Assembly (NCBI GenBank): GCA_964016885.1
Contig: OZ024743.1
Location: forward strand, 147,870,001 to 147,934,000
Direction of reading: 5' to 3'
From: Eledone cirrhosa
Taxonomy: Eukaryota
DNA: 64,000 bases
In this document: positions 14,016 through 64,000 of the stretch, piece after piece
How positions within the stretch are numbered: position 1 is the stretch's first letter
Layout of the letters: every line of letters begins with the position of its first letter
Translations under genes and position numbers: made by a program
The notes under the pieces: model-generated
What the model was told of the DNA's origin: nothing
What the model saw: only the letters and a program-made list of their open reading frames with translations
Databases searched by the model: none

Positions 14016-14080
14016 TATTTCATTATACATATTTCAGGGATACCAAATGAAATTATAGTATGCCTTCATCAGACAAAATA
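14016..14080 (-). ncRNA. Minimal type I hammerhead ribozyme (H2)
   Basis: Reverse complement reads TATTTTGT-CTGATGA-AGGCATACTA-loop-TGGTATCCCT-GAA-ATATGTAT-A-ATGAAATA. Confidence 0.75.
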
Positions 14081-14187
14081 CAATATATAACAGTTTTACA
14101 AATAAGCTTTGACGTACCCTATTAAAATGCAACCATTATTTTTGGAAGCCATCCGGATACTGAGTTGTTTATATTATTTTAATAAGT

Positions 14188-14244
14188 CTGATGAAGGCAT
14201 ACCATAATTTAATTTGGTATCCCTGAAATATGTATAATGAAATA
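14188..14244 (+). ncRNA. Hammerhead (H2), core intact but stem I disrupted
   Basis: CTGATGA-AGGCATACCA-loop-TGGTATCCCT-GAAA-TATGTATA-ATGAAATA. An extra AATAA in the 5' strand of stem I breaks the pairing. Confidence 0.65.
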
Positions 14245-14282
14245 AATATGGTTTTATAAATATAGTTTCCATTTATTAATAT

Positions 14283-15857: not shown

Positions 15858-15922
15858 TATTTCATTATACATATTTCAAGGACACCAAGTTAAATTATGG
15901 TGTGCTTTCATCAGATAAAATA
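15858..15922 (-). ncRNA. Minimal type I hammerhead ribozyme (H2)
   Basis: Reverse complement reads TATTTTAT-CTGATGA-AAGCACACCA-loop-TGGTGTCCTT-GAA-ATATGTAT-A-ATGAAATA. Stem II covaries with the 14-kb copies. Confidence 0.82.
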
Positions 15923-16795: not shown

Positions 16796-16861
<66 letters not shown>

Positions 16862-17101
16862 CGAAGGAAATGTGGTAAGGAACCAGGTGGAGCATAACGC
16901 ACCAAAGTACTCAATACTTAGGGTAGTAGAGTGGGTAATAGGAACCAGTAAGACCCCGATGGCTGAGCTCAAGCCGTTTCGACGGCTAATTCTGGACTAG
17001 AATTAGCCGTCGAAACGGCTTGAGCTCAGCCGTCAGGGTCTTACTGGTTCCTATATATATATATATATATATATACTGGATCTACCAACTCATAATATTA
17101 T

Positions 17102-17312: not shown

Positions 17313-17373
<61 letters not shown>

Positions 17374-17586
17374 TAAGTTAAAGTGTACATCTATATATGT
17401 ATACGGAAGTATTAGTATGCATATAAATACACATATGTATACATATGTACATGTACCGAGCTTTTCACTAGACACTTTACAGTGAGTGTCCAGCTAGTCT
17501 GTATGTAAACAGATGAACCGGGTTTTAGAGTCATACGAGTTTTCAAGGAAACACATTTCCTCTATTCTCCAGAGAGCCAGACAGGA

Positions 17587-17629
17587 ATATTGGACTAGTT
17601 TCGATGTTATTACATCTCATCAGCAATAT
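17587..17629 (-). ncRNA. Canonical minimal type I hammerhead ribozyme (H3)
   Basis: Reverse complement reads ATATTG-CTGATGA-GATGT-aata-ACATC-GAA-ACTAGT-C-CAATAT. Stems I and II are perfect, G10.1-C11.1 is present, stem III is the palindrome ACUAGU, and the site is GUC. Confidence 0.93.
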
Positions 17630-18165
17630 ATACCTATCTTTCCGGCTTCTCTGGAGAATTGTAAAAGCACATATCGTTATATGCTTTTTCTATGAAAATC
17701 AGTAGTGGGCAGACTAATTTGCATAGAACGTGAGTCATTGTACGCACCGGTTGAGCGGAAACGATAAAAACGAATAACGAAACGAAATTAAATTTCGTTT
17801 CGCTTCTAACTCACTTTTGTATGACTGACGCTTAAACAATTAAGTTAAAGTGTACATCTATATATGTATACGGAAGTATTAGTATGCATATAAATACACA
17901 TATGTATACATATGTACATGTACCGAGCTTTTCACTAGACACTTTACAGTGAGTGTCCAGCTAGTCTGTATGTAAACAGACGAACCGGGTTTTAGAGTCA
18001 TACGAGTTTTCAAGGAACCGGTGAACCGGTGCGTTTCCGCTGAAACGGTGCGTACAATGACTCACGTTCTATGCAAATTAGTCTGCCCACTACTGATTTT
18101 CATAGAAAAAGCATATAACGATATGCGCTTTTACAATTCTCCAGAGAAGTCGGAAAGATAGGTAT

Positions 18166-18208
18166 ATATTGCTGATAAGATGTAATAACATCGAAACTAG
18201 TCCAATAT
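18166..18208 (+). ncRNA. Hammerhead (H3) with core mutation CTGATAA (G8A), probably inactive
   Basis: Identical to the 17587 copy except at core position 8. Confidence 0.8.
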
Positions 18209-18497
18209 TCCTGTCTGGCTCTCTGGAGAATAGAGGAAATGTGTTTCCTTGAAAACTCGTATGACTCTAAAACCCGGTTCGTCTGTTTACATACAGACTA
18301 GCTGGACACTCACTGTAAAGTGTCTAGTGAAAAGCTCGGTACATGTACATATGTATACATATGTGTATTTATATGCATACTAATACTTCCGTATACATAT
18401 ATAGATGTACACTTTAACTTAATTGTTTAAGCGTCAGTCATACAAAAGAGAGTTAGAAGCGAAACGAAATTTAATTTCGTTTCGTTATTCGTTTTTA

Positions 18498-18972
<475 letters not shown>

Positions 18973-34403: not shown

Positions 34404-34419
34404 AATAATAATAATAAAA

Positions 34420-34452
<33 letters not shown>

Positions 34453-37400
34453 TTTTCTTTGTTAACCACAAGGGTTTACATAAAGTAGACATTAAGGACA
34501 GTACAGGACAATACAGGACGGTACAAATGGGCATTTCTGCGTGTAAAAAAAACAGAGGATGTAATAAAATAACAAAGAAAAATTCCCCAATAGGGGGGAG
34601 ACTTCCGAGGGACATTTGTGGAGAAAGCCCATTAAAAGACCACAGTGACCCTGATCACCAGGGCAAGTGCCCTCTCCCAGTTTTCCACCGTTAATTTACA
34701 GACACATACACAGAGAAGGCCCATTTACTCGGGCCATACTTGCTTCTGTCACCCATTTTTCAACAAAATGCTGGGAAGAGAGCACTTCCCTCTCTACCCT
34801 GATTTTCCTTTTCAAATGAAATTTGAAAAAGTTAATCAGGGCATTACCGAAGAGGTAAGTGCTCGTCTTCAGCCCTTCAAAAATGTCCACCATACTATCT
34901 CTTTCGCCATGGCCACCAGACAGATTACAACTGCCTGCCCTTCTCGGCTAAAGGAAGAGGGCGGGGCAATCCTCACGATGGACTCAGCTGATAGCTAGAT
35001 CAGTCCCACACGCGACAACAGGTGTTTGACATAAACCCACAAGTCAGCAATGCTCGGACACTGGACGAGTGCGTGCAGGACAGTTTCGTCGCCCTGTGCG
35101 CATCTCGGACATGCCCGGCTGACGGCACCTCCATGCTTGTAGAGTTTATCTCGAACTGGCAAAGCTCCTCGGTAGCACTTCCAGGCCAGAGATTTCTGGA
35201 AGTTCTCCATAGGCCCCGACCCGAAAGTTCTTCCGAAAAGGTTGGCTAGTTGATTTTCGTCGACGCCTAGAGTTTCCCCAAGTACGTCGTCGCTCTTCCC
35301 CTCCACTTATCCTCTATAGAACGCCAAGGTGGAGTTTCCACCGATCACATTGCCAGATTGGTCGAGGGCTGTGAGCGCCTGAAGAGATTCCAGTCTCCAG
35401 GCGCTCCCTCTCGGTCTTCGCTTGACCCAGGACTGCAGCTCCGTCAAGGAAACGAGCTGGGGAAATACGTGTCTAGCAAACGGCGACCACACCTGATCAC
35501 CGTCGAGGAAGAGGTGGAGAAGTCGTAGCCTGAGCGCGTGTCTGCGCATCATCAGCCACAGCATTCCTAGCCCTCCAAGTAGCGGGTGTTGACAGCAGAT
35601 GGACCACCTGACCATCGGAGCGCGTCCCTTCCACAAAAAGCGAAAGAGCAAACGTTCCAGCGCAGTCAGGCGAGGCTTAGGACAAGGTACGACGGTGAGG
35701 CGGTAGTAGATGACGGACGCGATATACGCGTTAGCCACCTCCGCTCGACCTTTCAGGGATATCTTCCTCTCGGCCCATTTCTGGGTGAGAGAAGCCACCC
35801 TGCTCGTCACCTCGTCCCAGTTTTTGTCCGTCTGGAGCTCCGGACCGAACCAGACCCCTAGCAATTTAACCGGTCCGTCCGTCCAGCGCCCGACGACGCT
35901 GTTGGACGGCATGGACCTGCCTCTCCAGGTGCCGAGCTGCAGGCCCACTGACTTTTCCTGGTTGATCATTGGTCCTGTCACCGCTTCGTATTCTCTTAGT
36001 GTAGTGCCGATCGCCTCGATGTGCTTGGCGTTCGACACCACTGCGGTGACATCGTCCGCATATGCTGACACGGATCTTCCGCTCCTATTTCGCGCGGGAC
36101 CCCGCTCAACGTCTCCAGTTTGTGCAGTAATGGCTCGAGAGTCAATACGTACAAGAGGGACGAGAGGGGACATCCTTGGCGGACCGAGCGCATGATGTTG
36201 AACGGTTCCGAAAGGTGACCGTTCACTCTCACCACAGAGCAGATGTCGCTGTGCATGGCAGCGATCCAGCATCTGAAGACGGGCACAAAGGCAGCCGCCC
36301 TCAGGACTGCCGATAGGTAACGATGGTCGACACTATCGAAAGCTTTCGACTGATCTAAATTGATCAAGGTCACACCCATTCCAGGTTCCCTAGCTACCCT
36401 CTCTATGATGTATCGCATGAGGTGGAGGTTGTCGTGGATGGATCTGTCGGGAATGGCGCATGTCTGCGCCTCTACCACCAGACTCCAACAACAAGCGCCA
36501 AATTCTTTGCTAGCACCGTGGCCAAAATCTTGAACTCTGTGTTTAGCAGAGTTATGGGCCTAAAATTATCTATGTTATCCCCTTGTTCGGATCCTTTCTC
36601 AGCAGCACCACAGCTCCTCGGCTCACAGAGCTGGGAATTCTCCCGTTCTGTAGTCAGTTGCAGTAGAAGTCCGCCAAGAGGCCTCCGAACAAGTCTGGCA
36701 TCTGTACGTAAAGTTCATAGGGCAGACCATCCAAACCAGGCGATTTGCCCCTTGTGCAGCTAGTCATTGCCTCCCGTATTTCAGCGGCTGTTATCAGCTT
36801 TTCGCAACACTCCGCCTCAGTGACCGAGATCCGCGGCAGTCCGTCGAGGTAGACACTAAAGTCCATCACTTGACCCGGCCCACCGCTGCCCCCGAACAGC
36901 TGAGCGAAGTGTCGCTGAAAAGCTTCACACATTTGCCCGGGATCGTGTAGCATGTGTCCGTCGTGGTCTACCAAAGAGCTGATCGTGGCTTTGTTGCCAC
37001 GACGCGCCTCCGCCACTCGGGCGCATTGAACGGCTTTCGTCCCCTCGTGCCTGAGAGCACGCACCCTTGCTCTGACAACGCAGCCTTAGTGCTTTGCATT
37101 GAAGAATTGGTCAAGGGCCAATTTCGCCGCAAGCACGTCGGTCGCGATGCCTTTGTTAAGCGCCTCGTCTAATTTTCTAACTAGTTCTCCTTCCGCTCTA
37201 TTTTTCTCTATTGCTAAAGCCTTACTAAACCTAATGGACTCTATTCTAATCGCTCTTTTCAGAGCAAACCACCACTTGTTGTTGACGTTGGCTCCCGTCA
37301 TCGCCCGCTTAACTAGTTCGCTAATCCGGTCTCTGTAGGCCTTGCGCGCTGGTAAGGACGCGTTTAGCTTCCAGTAGACGGGTCCTCGTCTATGAAGCCT

Positions 37401-37989
37401 ATCTAAGTCAAGCACACAGATCACGAATTTGTGGTCCGTGTAGCTGACTATCTTGAATTGTGGACTGCCTATGCTAGACCTATCTATTTCTCTACAAACT
37501 ATTCTATCTAGATATGATCTGGATGACCCTATGCGATTTGTCAAAGTCCACATTGGCACATTCGGGAAATCCAATCGGTACCTGTCAGACAGTTCAAAAC
37601 GCCTGAGCAGGTTGGTGAGGCTCTTGCACCATCCTCCCCTATCCGCTAATTCGACACAGTCCCAGCGTGCATCTAAGATCCCGTTCCAGTCGCCCACTAA
37701 CACTAAAGAGCGGGACGTTCCAAGAAAGGTCTCCAGATGCTGGAAGAAATCAGGCCGCCCTGCTCCTGTCGGGGCATAGACGGCCACTAGCCTGAAAGCT
37801 TGCCCGTCTCCGCTGGTCACATCTAGCACCACCAACTTACCTTCTGGGTCCAGGAAGATGGCCCGTATGGCTAGATCCAAACCTCTCCGAAAAAGCACAG
37901 CAACTCCTCCCCCGATCCCGGACGGCTGGGAGATGCGTACACATCGTAGCCGCCGAAGTTCGGTGCGAAGGCCCGTGCTTCGGAGATTC
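34404..37989 (-). mobile_element. Tx1/L1-type LINE copy A (ORF2: APE endonuclease, RT, C-terminal Zn finger), frameshifted, with (TTA)n tail
   Basis: FRLVAVYAP, LVGDWN, SYLDRI and YTDH (APE); GKSPGLDGLP, DQSKAFD, SVRQGCPLS and AYADD (RT); CPRC...ETVLHALVQC. Tail at 34404-34451. Confidence 0.95.
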
Positions 37990-59062: not shown

Positions 59063-59111
<49 letters not shown>

Positions 59112-62100
59112 TTTCTTTATTAACCACAAGGGTTTACATAAAGTAGACATTAAGGACAGTGCAGGACAATACAGGACGGTACAAATGGGCATTTCTGCGT
59201 GTAAAAAACAAAAACAGAGGGTGTAACAAAAAATAACAATGAAAAATTCCCCAATAGGGGGGAGACACCGGAGGGACATTTGTGGAGAAAGCCCAGTAAA
59301 AAGCCACAATGACCCTGACCGCCAAGGCAAGTGCCCTCTCCCAGTTTTCCACCTTTAATATACTCAGAGTAGGCCCATTCACTCGGGCCAATCTTGCTTC
59401 TCTCACCCATCTTTCAACAAAATGCTGGGAAGAGAGCACTTCCCTCTCTACTCTGATTTTCCTTTTCAAATGAAATTTGAAAAAGTCAATCAGGGCATCA
59501 CCGCAGAGGTAAGTGCTCGTCTTCAGCCCTCTCAAACGTGTCCACCATACTATCTCTTTCGCCATGGCCACCAGACAGATAAAAACTGCCTGCCCTTCCC
59601 GGCTAAAGGAGGAGGGCGGGACAATCCTCACGATGGACTCAGCTGATAGCTGGATCCGTCCTACACGTGACAGCAGGTGTTCGACATAAACCCACAAGTC
59701 AGAAATGCTCGGACACTGGACGAGTGCGTGCAGGACGGTTTCGTCGCCCTGCGCGCATCACGGACATGGCCGGCTGACGGCACCTCCATGACTGTAGAGT
59801 TTATCCTGAACTGGCAAAGCTCCTCGGTAGCACTGCCAGGCCAGGGATTTCTGGAAGCTGTCCATAGGCCCCGGCCCGAAAGTTCTTCCGAAGAGATTGG
59901 CTAGTTGATTTTCGTCGACGCCTAGAGTTTCCCCAAGTACGTCGTCACTCTTCCCCTCCACTAATCCTCTATAGAACGCCAAGGTGGATTTTCCACCGAT
60001 CACATTGCCCGATTGGTCGAGGGGTGTGAGCGCCTGAAGACATTCCAGTCTCCAAGCGCTCCCTCTCGGTCTTCGCTTGACCCAGGACTGCAGCTCCGTC
60101 AAAGAGACGAGCTGGGGAAAGACGTGTCTAGCAAACGGCGACCATACCTGATCACCGTCGAGGAAAAGGTGGAGATGTCGTAGCCTGAGCGCGTGTCTGC
60201 GCATCATAAGCCAGGAATGCCCAGCCCTCCACGTAGCGGGTGTTGACCACAGATGGACCGCTTGACCATCGGAGCCCGTCCCTTCCACAAAAAGCGAAAG
60301 AGCAAACGCTCCAGCGCGGTCAGGCAGGGCTTAGGACAAGGTACGACGGTCAGGCGGTAGTAGATGACGGACGTGATATACGCGTTAGCCACCTCCGCTC
60401 GACCTTTCAGGGATAGCTTCCTCTGCGCCCATTTCTGGGTGAGAGAAGCCACTCTGCTCGTCACCTCGTCCCAGTTTATGTCCGTCTGGAGGTCCGGACC
60501 GAACCAGACCCCTAGCAATTTAACCGGTCCGTCCGTCGCTGTTCGACGGCATGGACCTGCCTCTCCAGGTGCCGAGCTGCAGGCCCACTGACTTTTTCTG
60601 GTTGATCATTGGTCCTGTCACCGCTTCGTATTCTCTTAGTGTAGTGCCGATCGCCTCGATGTGATTGGCGTTCGACACCACTACGGTGACATCTATCGCA
60701 TATGCTGACACGGATCTTCCGTATCCTAATTCGCGCGGGACCCACCTCAACGTCTCCAATTTGTGCAGTAATGGTTCGAGAGTTAATACGTACAAGAGGG
60801 ATGAGAGGGGACATCCTTGGCGGACCAAGCGCATGATGTTGGACGGTTCCGAAAGGTGACCGATCACTCTCACCACAGAAAAGATGTCGCTGTGCATGGT
60901 AGCGATCCAGCCTCTGAAGACGGGCCCAAAGCCAGCCGCCCTCAGGGCTGCCACTAGGTAACGATGGTCGACCCTATCGAAAGCTTTCGACTGATCTAAA
61001 TTGATCAAGGACCCACCCGTACCAGGTTCCCTAGCTACCCTCTCTACGATGTATCGCATGAGGTGGAGGTTGTCGTGGATGGATCTGTCGGGAATGGCGC
61101 ACGTCTGCGTCTCTCCCACCAGACCACCAACGACAAGTGCTAACCTCTTTGCAAGCACCTTGGCCAAAATCTCGAACTCTGTGTTTAGCAGAGTTATGGG
61201 CCTGAAATTATCTATGTTATCCCCCTTATTTGGATCCTTTCTCAGCAGCGCCACAGCTCCTCGGCTCACAGAGCTGGGAATTCTCCCGTTCTGTTGCCAG
61301 TTGCAGTAGACGTCCGCCAAGAGGCCTCCGAACAAGTCTGGCATCTGTACATAAAGTTCATAGGGCAGACCATCCAAACCAGGCGATTTACCCTTGGTGC
61401 AGCCAGTCATTGCCTCCCGTACATCAGCGGCTGTTATCGGCTTTTCGCAACACTCCGCCTCACTGGCCGAGAGCCTCGGCAGTCCGTTGATGTAGACACT
61501 AAAGTCCATCCCTCGATTCGGCCCGCCGCTGCCCCCGAACAGCTGGGCGAAGTGTCGCTGGAAAGCTTCACACATTTGCCCGGGATCGAGTAGGATGTGC
61601 CCGTCGTTGTCCACCAAAGACCGGATCGTGGCTTTGTTGCCACGACGCGCCTCCGCCACTCGGACCCATTGAACGGCTTTCGTCCCTTCGTGTCTGAGAG
61701 CATGCACCCTAGCTCTGACAACGCAGCCTTCGTGCTTTGCATTGAAGAATTGGTCAATGGCCAATTTCGCCGCAAGTGCGTCGGCGCGATGCCTTCACTA
61801 AGCGCCTCGTCTAATTTTCTAACTAATTCTCCCTCTGCTCTATTTTTCTCTATTGCTAAAGCCTTACTAAACCTAATGGACTCTATTCTAATTGCTCTTT
61901 TCAGAGCAAACCACCACTTGTTGACGATGGCTCCCGTCAACGCCCGCTTAACTAGTTCGCTAATCCGGTCTCTGTAGTCCTTCCGCGCTGGTAAGGACGC
62001 GTTTAGCTTCCAGTAGCTGGGTCATCGTCTATGAAGCCTATCTAAGTCAAGCACACAGATCACGAATTTGTGGTCTGTGTAGCTGACTATCTTGAATTGT

Positions 62101-64000
62101 GGACAGCCTATGCTAGACCTATCTATTTCCCTACAAAATACTCTATCTAGATATGATCTGGATGACCCTATGCGATTTGTTCAAGTCCACATTGGCACAT
62201 TCGGGAAATCCAATCGGTACCTGTCAGACAGTTCAAAACGCTTGAGCAGGTTGGTGAGGCTCTTGCACCCTCCTCCCCTATCCGCTAATCCCACACAGTC
62301 CCAGCGTGCATTTAAGATCCCGTTCCAGTAGCCCACTAACACTAAAGAGCGGGACGTTCCAAGAAAGGTCTCCAGACGCCGGAAGAAATCAGGCCGCCCT
62401 GCTCCTGTCGGGGCATAGACGGCCACTAGCCTGAAAGCTTTCCCGTCTCCGCTGGTCACGTCCAGCACCACCAACTTACCCTCTGGGTCCAGGAAGATGG
62501 CCCGTATGGCGAGATCCAAAACTCTCCGAAAAAGCACAGCAGCTCCACCCCCCGATCCAGGACGGCTGGGGGATGCGTACACATCGTAGCCGCCGTGCTT
62601 CGGAGATTCTGGTCTCGCTGATGGCCACTACATATATGTTAATGACCTGAGGTCGTTGAGCAGGTGCTTCCATGACGACCCCAAGCCACGCGCATTTATG
62701 CTGCCCATTCTGAGTGAGGTCATGTTGAAATGGAGTGGTAAAGATGGGAAAGACCACTTACCTTACTTCTCATAGAGGAAAGATGGTTTCTCCATCCTTT
62801 TCACTGCTTCTGGCCTCCTCCGGAAGGATGTCCTTATAAATCCTCCTGGAGAGTGCTTGTCGGAAGTCTCCGATGTCTTTGGGGAATTTTTGTTTTAGTG
62901 TCGTGTACGTTTTCTGTGTGATGCGAGTGATTTGTATGTGTGGAGGTGGTGTGAAATTTTGGGTTGTTGTGTAGTCTTTTTCTGTGATGCTGGTGTTGTG
63001 TTGGATGTAGTGTAATAATTGGTAGTTGTTCAAATTTATTGCTGTGTAGTGTGTATCGTTTTGGTTCTTTTGTTTTGTTTGCGTTTGTTGTGGTTTTGTT
63101 TCTGTTTCGCTTTTTAATTACTTTTGTGGTGTTGGTGATGGTGGTGTTGGGGTTAATGATGGTGATGGTGTTGGTGTTCGTGGTGATGGGGTTGGTGATG
63201 CTGGTGTGGATGGTGGCATTGCTGTCCTAACTTTTTTGTTTGATAGTTTATTTGTTTCCCTCTGTATTTTGTTATTGTAGGCGGAAGGAAGGGGATTTTT
63301 TCTTTTTTGGTTTCTTTTTCTTTTTTTTCGCTTTTTCTGATACCGTTTCCCACTCCTCGTCGTCACAATCTGTCTCCAGATGCGATAGGTCGGGAAGTGG
63401 AAAATCCTCCACAGGCGTTGGTTTTGGTTGTGGCGTGATGGATGGTGTAGGCGCTGGTGCTAGTTCTGGCCCTTTGGGTGGTGGTAGCGTTGGTTTTGCT
63501 ACTGTTGCTGGGGTTGTTGCTGTTACAGTTGCTTCTGTTGTTGCTGCTACCGTTGTTGCTGCCATTTCTGCTGCTGGTGGTGTTAATTGTTGAGTGACTG
63601 GGGTGGGTAAGAGAGGTGGCCTCAACCTTTTAGCCTGAGGGCAGAAAGCCCTTAGGTGGGTTCCTTCACCACAAACGCCACACCTAGGCCTTCTGCCCTC
63701 GACGATTACGGTGAGGTGGCTGCTGTCAACGAGGTCTATTACCTCTGGGATCTCCTCAATGCTTTTTTGGTCCACTTGGATCAGGAGCTCCATCCCAGAT
63801 CCGGACCAGTTCTCCTGCTTTTCTTTCGCTATTTCGATTATCTTGGTGTTGGCTTCGATGCCGGCGAGGACCGCAGCCATTAGCCAGGGAATTTCGATGG
63901 CCGGTGGAACGTGGGTCACCCTGATCTCCACGAGTCTCTAGCTACAATAGCTTGGGACGAGTGTGAAGTTGTGTCACTTCTTAATGGGGCCATGGAGTGT
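59063..64000 (-). mobile_element. Tx1/L1-type LINE copy D (same subfamily as A), with ORF1 and frameshifted ORF2, running off the window
   Basis: (TTA)n tail at 59063-59109. ORF2 APE/RT/Zn-finger pieces span 59134-62723, with the RT YADD mutated to YAID. ORF1 63272-63931 contains CGVCGEGTHLRAFC. Confidence 0.95.

Follow-up and report, generated by a model that had tools for sequence, protein, structure and literature searches.

A non-coding hammerhead repeat family of Eledone cirrhosa with insertion ends like those of Penelope-like elements

Structure of the insertion at 17370-18497

The window, i.e. the whole stretch of 64,000 nucleotides of Eledone cirrhosa DNA analysed here (contig OZ024743.1, positions 147,870,001 to 147,934,000), lies on C4 of the 3.0-Gb assembly. 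Positions 17370-18497 are a single insertion of a large non-coding repeat family with a unit of 467 nt, numbered u1-u467 on the reverse complement of 17370-17836 (u1 = 17836, u467 = 17370). From left to right, the locus consists of a (TA)n run, a left arm reading leftward (u287-u467, then u1-u467), a 14-nt filler, a right arm reading rightward (u74-u467, then u1-u72) and (TA)n again on the other side. The features are:

17317-17369 (no strand): left (TA)n flank, the target microsatellite
17370-17836 (minus): left arm, full 467-nt unit; its outer end is fixed end site A
17566-17658 (minus): extended helix I stem bearing the hammerhead (folding and covariation)
17587-17629 (minus): type I hammerhead with intact core, GUC cleavage between 17593 and 17592 (motif scan)
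17776-17804 (minus): 13-bp hairpin between end sites A and B (u33-u61)
17837-18017 (minus): second unit of the left arm, 5'-truncated (u287-u467), head to tail with the full unit
18018-18031 (no strand): 14-nt filler where the orientation inverts, similar to u83-u92 of the element (sequence)
18032-18425 (plus): right (inverted) arm, u74-u467
18166-18208 (plus): second hammerhead, core change G8A at 18177, predicted inactive
18426-18497 (plus): 72-nt tail (u1-u72), which stops at fixed end site B
18499-18794 (no strand): right (TA)-rich flank

As an earlier note on this DNA had described, the left arm passes from a full unit into a head-to-tail restart at 17837, the inverted arm begins at a different point of the unit and the two arms are nearly identical. 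The inverted arm (18032-18497) was placed from u74 onwards, and the arms have 6 differences in 394 positions, one of them the G8A change in the right core. The right arm extends 72 nt beyond the unit junction, forming a tail, and the filler at the inversion point is copied from the element itself. The same note called the event recent, which stands only as a relative statement, this copy having 7 private changes vs. none in other insertions; the locus is an ordinary copy in decay. An origin of its two arms from different variants was considered and rejected, as the arm differences are private.

Hammerhead ribozyme

The 43-nt hammerhead claimed for 17587-17629 was recovered by the motif scan as a type I ribozyme with a helix I of 6 bp and a helix II of 5 bp. 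Its stem I, said to continue through about 17565-17659, corresponds to a helix I extending to about 17566-17658 (z = -6.0). The entire 467-nt unit is also strongly folded, both as a linear molecule (z = -9.9 vs. shuffles) and as a circle (-145.6 vs. -92.5 ± 6.5 kcal/mol for 40 shuffles), where 65% of it is paired. The Rfam model HH9 matches at E 9.5e-7, under its gathering score, and at the gathering level Rfam gave no match within the window. Helix III consists of just one A-U pair, which closes a palindromic CUAG loop. Its closure is computed to be unfavourable in the monomer (+1.1 vs. -4.8 kcal/mol for the core), and two copies can pair through the CUAG palindrome at a computed -6.2 kcal/mol. 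On these energies the ribozyme is modelled as a dimer-dependent type with a weak helix III, and the words "perfect" and "textbook" used for it earlier are not supported. The form with a one-bp helix III is described by Cervera & de la Pena 2014 (PMC4209133) as the canonical metazoan hammerhead, which cleaves weakly by itself and in tandem repeats folds into a dimer. The axolotl HHR_Amex1 is described in matching terms, with one base pair, a palindromic tetraloop and action as a dimer (PMC7229834).

The covariation alignment comprised 34 copies, one per locus, five of them from the sister family described below. None of the 34 varies in the core, in loop II (AAYA) or in the U after helix I, and residues of loop II and helix I presumably form the tertiary contact. 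Changes on both sides occur at 8 of the 17 pairs, with 98% of cells paired; these compensatory changes come largely from two splits, that of the subfamily and that of the sister family, and represent few independent events.

The core of the right arm reads CUGAUAA, a variant found in 4 copies genome-wide vs. 1,317 intact ones; in the fetched loci, which were chosen via an intact core, 181 of 183 motifs have it intact. With one intact ribozyme, on one strand, the locus at 17370-18497 is unable to release a monomer by itself, and in the predicted fold of a transcript reading through the whole locus this ribozyme is buried in the arm-arm duplex. For both reasons it is a poor test locus, and its earlier rating as the best experimental candidate is not supported; the tandem arrays elsewhere in the genome are better ones.

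Two variants of the ribozyme may be mentioned. At L063:6518-9882 (C4:72.71 Mb) all units have the helix III loop CUGG, for which pairing between copies is still possible via G-U wobbles, and the distant subfamilies (L071-L090) mostly have GUU, not GUC, at the cleavage site.

Repeat family and sister family

The exact hammerhead core has 1,317 matches genome-wide (control 0) and a degenerate core pattern 9,434, of which the 100 listed all belong to the 467-nt family. Units are 466-472 nt long, with a longer variant that has an internal duplication; their GC content is 36% and they are non-coding, six-frame translation yielding short frames only. A genome search for tandem arrays with two or more hammerheads on the same strand, as suggested by the earlier note, found such arrays: the family includes same-strand arrays with at least two consecutive intact hammerheads (e.g. 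C1:14.044-14.051 Mb and C1:30.832-30.841 Mb), the locus at 17370-18497 by itself having one, and array length reaches at least 38.8 kb, with about 82 units, at C1:95.62 Mb. A complex insertion at L065:4635-9803 (C9:26.73 Mb) has several inversions and a variant unit of roughly 535 nt, in which about 70 nt are duplicated internally.

According to the earlier note, copies that always adjoin the ORF of a Penelope-like element (PLE) would make the repeat an ordinary pLTR fragment. PLE fragments are frequent within 1.5 kb of the units, but in the 54 loci tested, mostly read with about 4 kb of flank, no PLE ORF is joined to a unit without intervening (TA)n, which separates every such ORF from the unit. 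The PLE ORFs beside the units at L054, L056 and L061 were examined as possibly joined and rejected, being separate insertions in a shared (TA)n. An RT plus GIY-YIG ORF between pLTRs, the mark of an autonomous PLE, is likewise absent from the family in the loci read. Because no fetched copy is joined to an ORF, we regard the family as a non-LTR retrozyme and not as a pLTR stump, and the description as retrozyme-like holds for the family as a whole, with its same-strand arrays of intact hammerheads.

A sister family has a 434-nt unit and 897 core matches. It is collinear and in phase with the 467-nt family over the whole unit, at 62% identity (296 of 477 columns; alignment score 339 vs. 133 ± 12 shuffled), and the stems show compensatory changes between the two. 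In the sister family (L093:3495-4776, C2:328.23 Mb; L111-L140) helix II often opens with a C-A mismatch. An apparent extension of its unit was rejected, being a LINE fragment inserted in it.

Insertion ends and target sites

The ends were surveyed in 68 blocks (43 simple inversions, 23 single-direction and 2 complex), 2 of which are spurious TA-rich fragments; the loci were found via their intact hammerhead and taken from the head of lists, and are a non-random sample. The 3' ends are fixed at two sites, A at u466/467 and B at u72/73, 72-73 nt further on, unlike the 5' ends, which are scattered. Among the 43 simple inverted blocks the combination A+B is present in 39, A+A and B+B in none, and one end is non-standard in 4; when a duplicate is removed (L041 and L042 are one duplicated insertion), A+B is found in 38 of 42. 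TA-rich DNA adjoins 92 of 113 3' ends, vs. 3-8% of background 15-mers. The A and B sites at which the sister family ends are homologous to these, and its tail, of about 52 nt, is about 20 nt shorter. Since its B end is homologous despite the shorter tail, it is likely RNA sequence or structure, and not a fixed distance, that defines the start sites.

PLE insertions have been described as consisting of an inverted truncated copy with a tail of 30-40 bp, often at one end only, and a bias towards microsatellites (Craig et al. 2021, PMC8557442). Frangieh et al. 2024 (PMC11167929) traced the tail to a pair of RT start sites within the RNA, the tail being what lies between them, and found that both strands are cut and extended by the enzyme. 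The 467-nt family shares the inverted truncated arm, the one-sided tail, the microsatellite target and the two fixed RNA start sites with the insertions described in the accessible text of these papers; it differs in that it has no ORF, the tail is 72-73 nt long and it runs into the next unit instead of the start of an ORF. Retrozyme and PLE, set against each other in the earlier note, are not opposed here: the ends indicate a retrozyme moved by PLE-type machinery.

Penelope-like elements of the genome

Three ORF-bearing PLE families, H1, H2 and P, have intact frames of 1,239, 1,217 and 923 aa, respectively. They end in (TA)n, and their tails, about 42-57 nt long, consist of the beginning of their own ORF. 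Eleven inverted insertions of ORF-bearing PLEs were examined, and all 8 with both ends readable have one tailed and one untailed arm. Since a Pfam scan of 9 PLE-like frames gave one weak RVT_1 match only, the PLEs were recognised by motif and layout. Intact PLE ORFs with RT and C-terminal GIY-YIG, of very abundant families, lie at L232:2346-5996, L233:2325-6041 and L234:1454-4222, all on the minus strand.

No sequence is shared between the unit and the pLTRs of H1, H2 and P. A helper was also sought among 117 other hammerhead-like matches with an equal helix III (control 12); of the 20 fetched, 7 are the sister family and the remainder are unlinked to the unit. Searches with patterns for additional hammerhead relatives, which gave 2 and 0 matches, revealed no other family with this form of hammerhead.

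Comparison with known retrozymes

Judged by its sequence, the family fits the genomic definition of a non-LTR retrozyme and belongs to the known retrozyme class. It resembles the animal non-LTR retrozymes of PMC7229834 and 10.64898/2026.07.22.740005 in its non-coding tandem units, canonical type I hammerhead, low GC, strong self-pairing and the presence of PLEs in the same genome. Its unit is longer than the 170-400 nt given in the former and within the 51-972 bp of the latter. For the 467-nt family no homologous pLTR was found among the PLE families compared. Non-autonomous derivatives of Chlamys PLEs, e.g. MRC1, are alike in their non-autonomy and their multicopy head-to-tail insertions, but their 3' end generally resembles that of their autonomous family, and canonical hammerheads are lacking in most Chlamys elements in the accessible part of that account (PMC8557442). 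Plant-type LTR retrozymes have a type III hammerhead in LTRs around a unique core, in contrast to the type I hammerhead and tandem units found here.

Retrozymes have already been proposed, from co-occurrence and pLTR homology, to be non-autonomous PLE derivatives (Li et al. 2026, 10.64898/2026.07.22.740005). Where PMC7229834 and 10.64898/2026.07.22.740005, in their accessible text, propose PLEs as helpers of animal retrozymes from co-occurrence and homology, the link is drawn here from insertion ends: a retrozyme that is purely non-coding has the ends typical of PLEs, and intact PLE ORFs are present in its genome. The literature found on octopus or cephalopod hammerheads or retrozymes consisted of general papers only, and by title and abstract none was found on PLE-type ends of retrozyme insertions, although supplements, Repbase and subscription papers may hold the family or such ends.

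The copying template

Arms longer than one unit make up 53 of 92, and they run on into the next unit, not into an ORF. Truncation of the 5' end near the cleavage site was found in 2 of 92 arms vs. 2.2 expected, so that a linear cleaved monomer is disfavoured as template, the truncations showing no pile-up there. Of the 36 multi-copy loci, 12 have some rare allele that every copy carries, whichever arm it is on; 15 of the 36 have any rare fixed allele and the other 21, having none, are uninformative. Projection of alleles by BLAST is noisy for the distant subfamilies (the arms of L089 differ by 0.69%, vs. 0 by MAFFT of full units), and at L080 the 5 fixed alleles may reflect differences between subfamilies. 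Alleles that vary among the units of a locus recur in another locus in 11 of 191 cases, 6 of these at indel columns. One insertion has 18 identical full units spanning both arms. Older arrays have in-phase, partly shared, unfixed variants that stem from later duplication of DNA.

The simplest reading of such clonal units, and the one favoured here from the sequences, is that one monomer was copied repeatedly, which would mean a circle. Rolling-circle copying of a circular monomer is favoured because locus-specific alleles are often common to both arms and the truncations are not piled at the cleavage site. Clonality of the units could also come from a homogeneous source array or from gene conversion between arms.

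Proposed mechanism and alternative explanations

We consider it probable, on balance, that the family is a non-LTR retrozyme with PLE-like ends whose RNA is likely released by the hammerhead, likely circularised and likely copied into (TA)n in trans by a PLE RT/endonuclease. Transcripts of tandem arrays would be cut by paired (dimeric) hammerheads and the released monomer ligated to a circle, as for other retrozymes in PMC7229834. A PLE-type enzyme acting in trans would then cut the (TA)n target, both cut DNA strands priming cDNA, with one start at site A and the second, 72-73 nt distant on that monomer, at site B. The two cDNAs would each circle the template for a variable distance before the two truncated 5' ends were joined head to head, and some arrays would be enlarged later by duplication at the DNA level. 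Two reports count against this mechanism: the PLE studied in vitro inserted without need for hammerhead cleavage (PMC11167929), and only 1 of 9 Xenopus retrozyme dimers cleaved, 8 of 9 failing to do so (Li et al. 2026, 10.64898/2026.07.22.740005).

The first of these reports touches on a rather unlikely alternative, in which a PLE-driven non-autonomous element is copied from an uncleaved linear multimer of a young homogeneous array, the hammerhead trimming or acting elsewhere and no circle being copied. Homogeneous candidate source arrays exist, such as that of 18 identical units, PAc took unprocessed RNA in vitro (PMC11167929), and the seamless crossing of the cleavage site fits uncleaved RNA just as well. 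Yet older arrays have partly shared, unfixed variants and few unit-variable alleles are found at a second locus, the 12 loci mentioned have a rare allele fixed on both arms, and compensatory change has kept the ribozyme fold over 38% divergence. It is improbable that the unit belongs, as pLTR, to an ORF-bearing PLE that is rare or went undetected, the insertions being truncated stumps with later tandem growth. The end signature is indeed that of PLEs, pLTR-related retrozymes are reported in Xenopus (10.64898/2026.07.22.740005), PLE fragments are often no more than 1.5 kb away and the genome scan was non-exhaustive; against this, more than half of the arms pass one unit and enter another instead of an ORF, (TA)n lies between the unit and every nearby PLE ORF in the 54 loci, the two families are collinear in the same phase along the whole unit, and the hammerhead is canonical, not of the minimal pLTR type (PMC4209133). 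Still less plausible, and to our minds very improbable, is a satellite or foldback DNA spread by recombination at the DNA level, with the hammerhead as a relic. The in-phase variant blocks of large arrays are typical of unequal crossover, but 3' ends that are fixed and polar, 5' ends that are scattered, the A/B rule and the insertion into (TA)n speak against it, and so does the difference between the two ends of an insertion, which sets them apart from terminal inverted repeats.

Returning to the retrozyme copied by PLE-type machinery, we tentatively suggest a more specific form of it, which is possible but which we would not yet call probable: the insertions may be footprints of rolling-circle reverse transcription by a dimeric PLE enzyme on one ribozyme circle, with two RNA-defined starts, strictly one per DNA strand. 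Both arms, up to the 18 identical units, would then come from a single circle, and the family would be an old free-living parasite without a close PLE parent. The predicted start sites A and B, the strict one-per-arm rule and the clonal arrays make both the choice between circle and multimer and the identity of the helper testable in a reconstituted reaction.

Other elements in the window

Hammerhead-like motifs of other families lie in inverted repeats at 2537-2766, 14016-14268 and 15858-15922; they have a short helix I, a long helix II and a palindromic TA-rich helix III, and are likely the ends of other PLE families. A small inverted element between (TA)n runs at 16861-17054, with about 80 nt extra on one arm, probably represents another PLE family, as a truncated insertion whose tail is long. 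SINE copies, seemingly reminiscent of octopus elements, are numerous throughout the window, and two LINE copies of 3.5 kb (34405-37963 and 59063-62603) are 92.5% identical.
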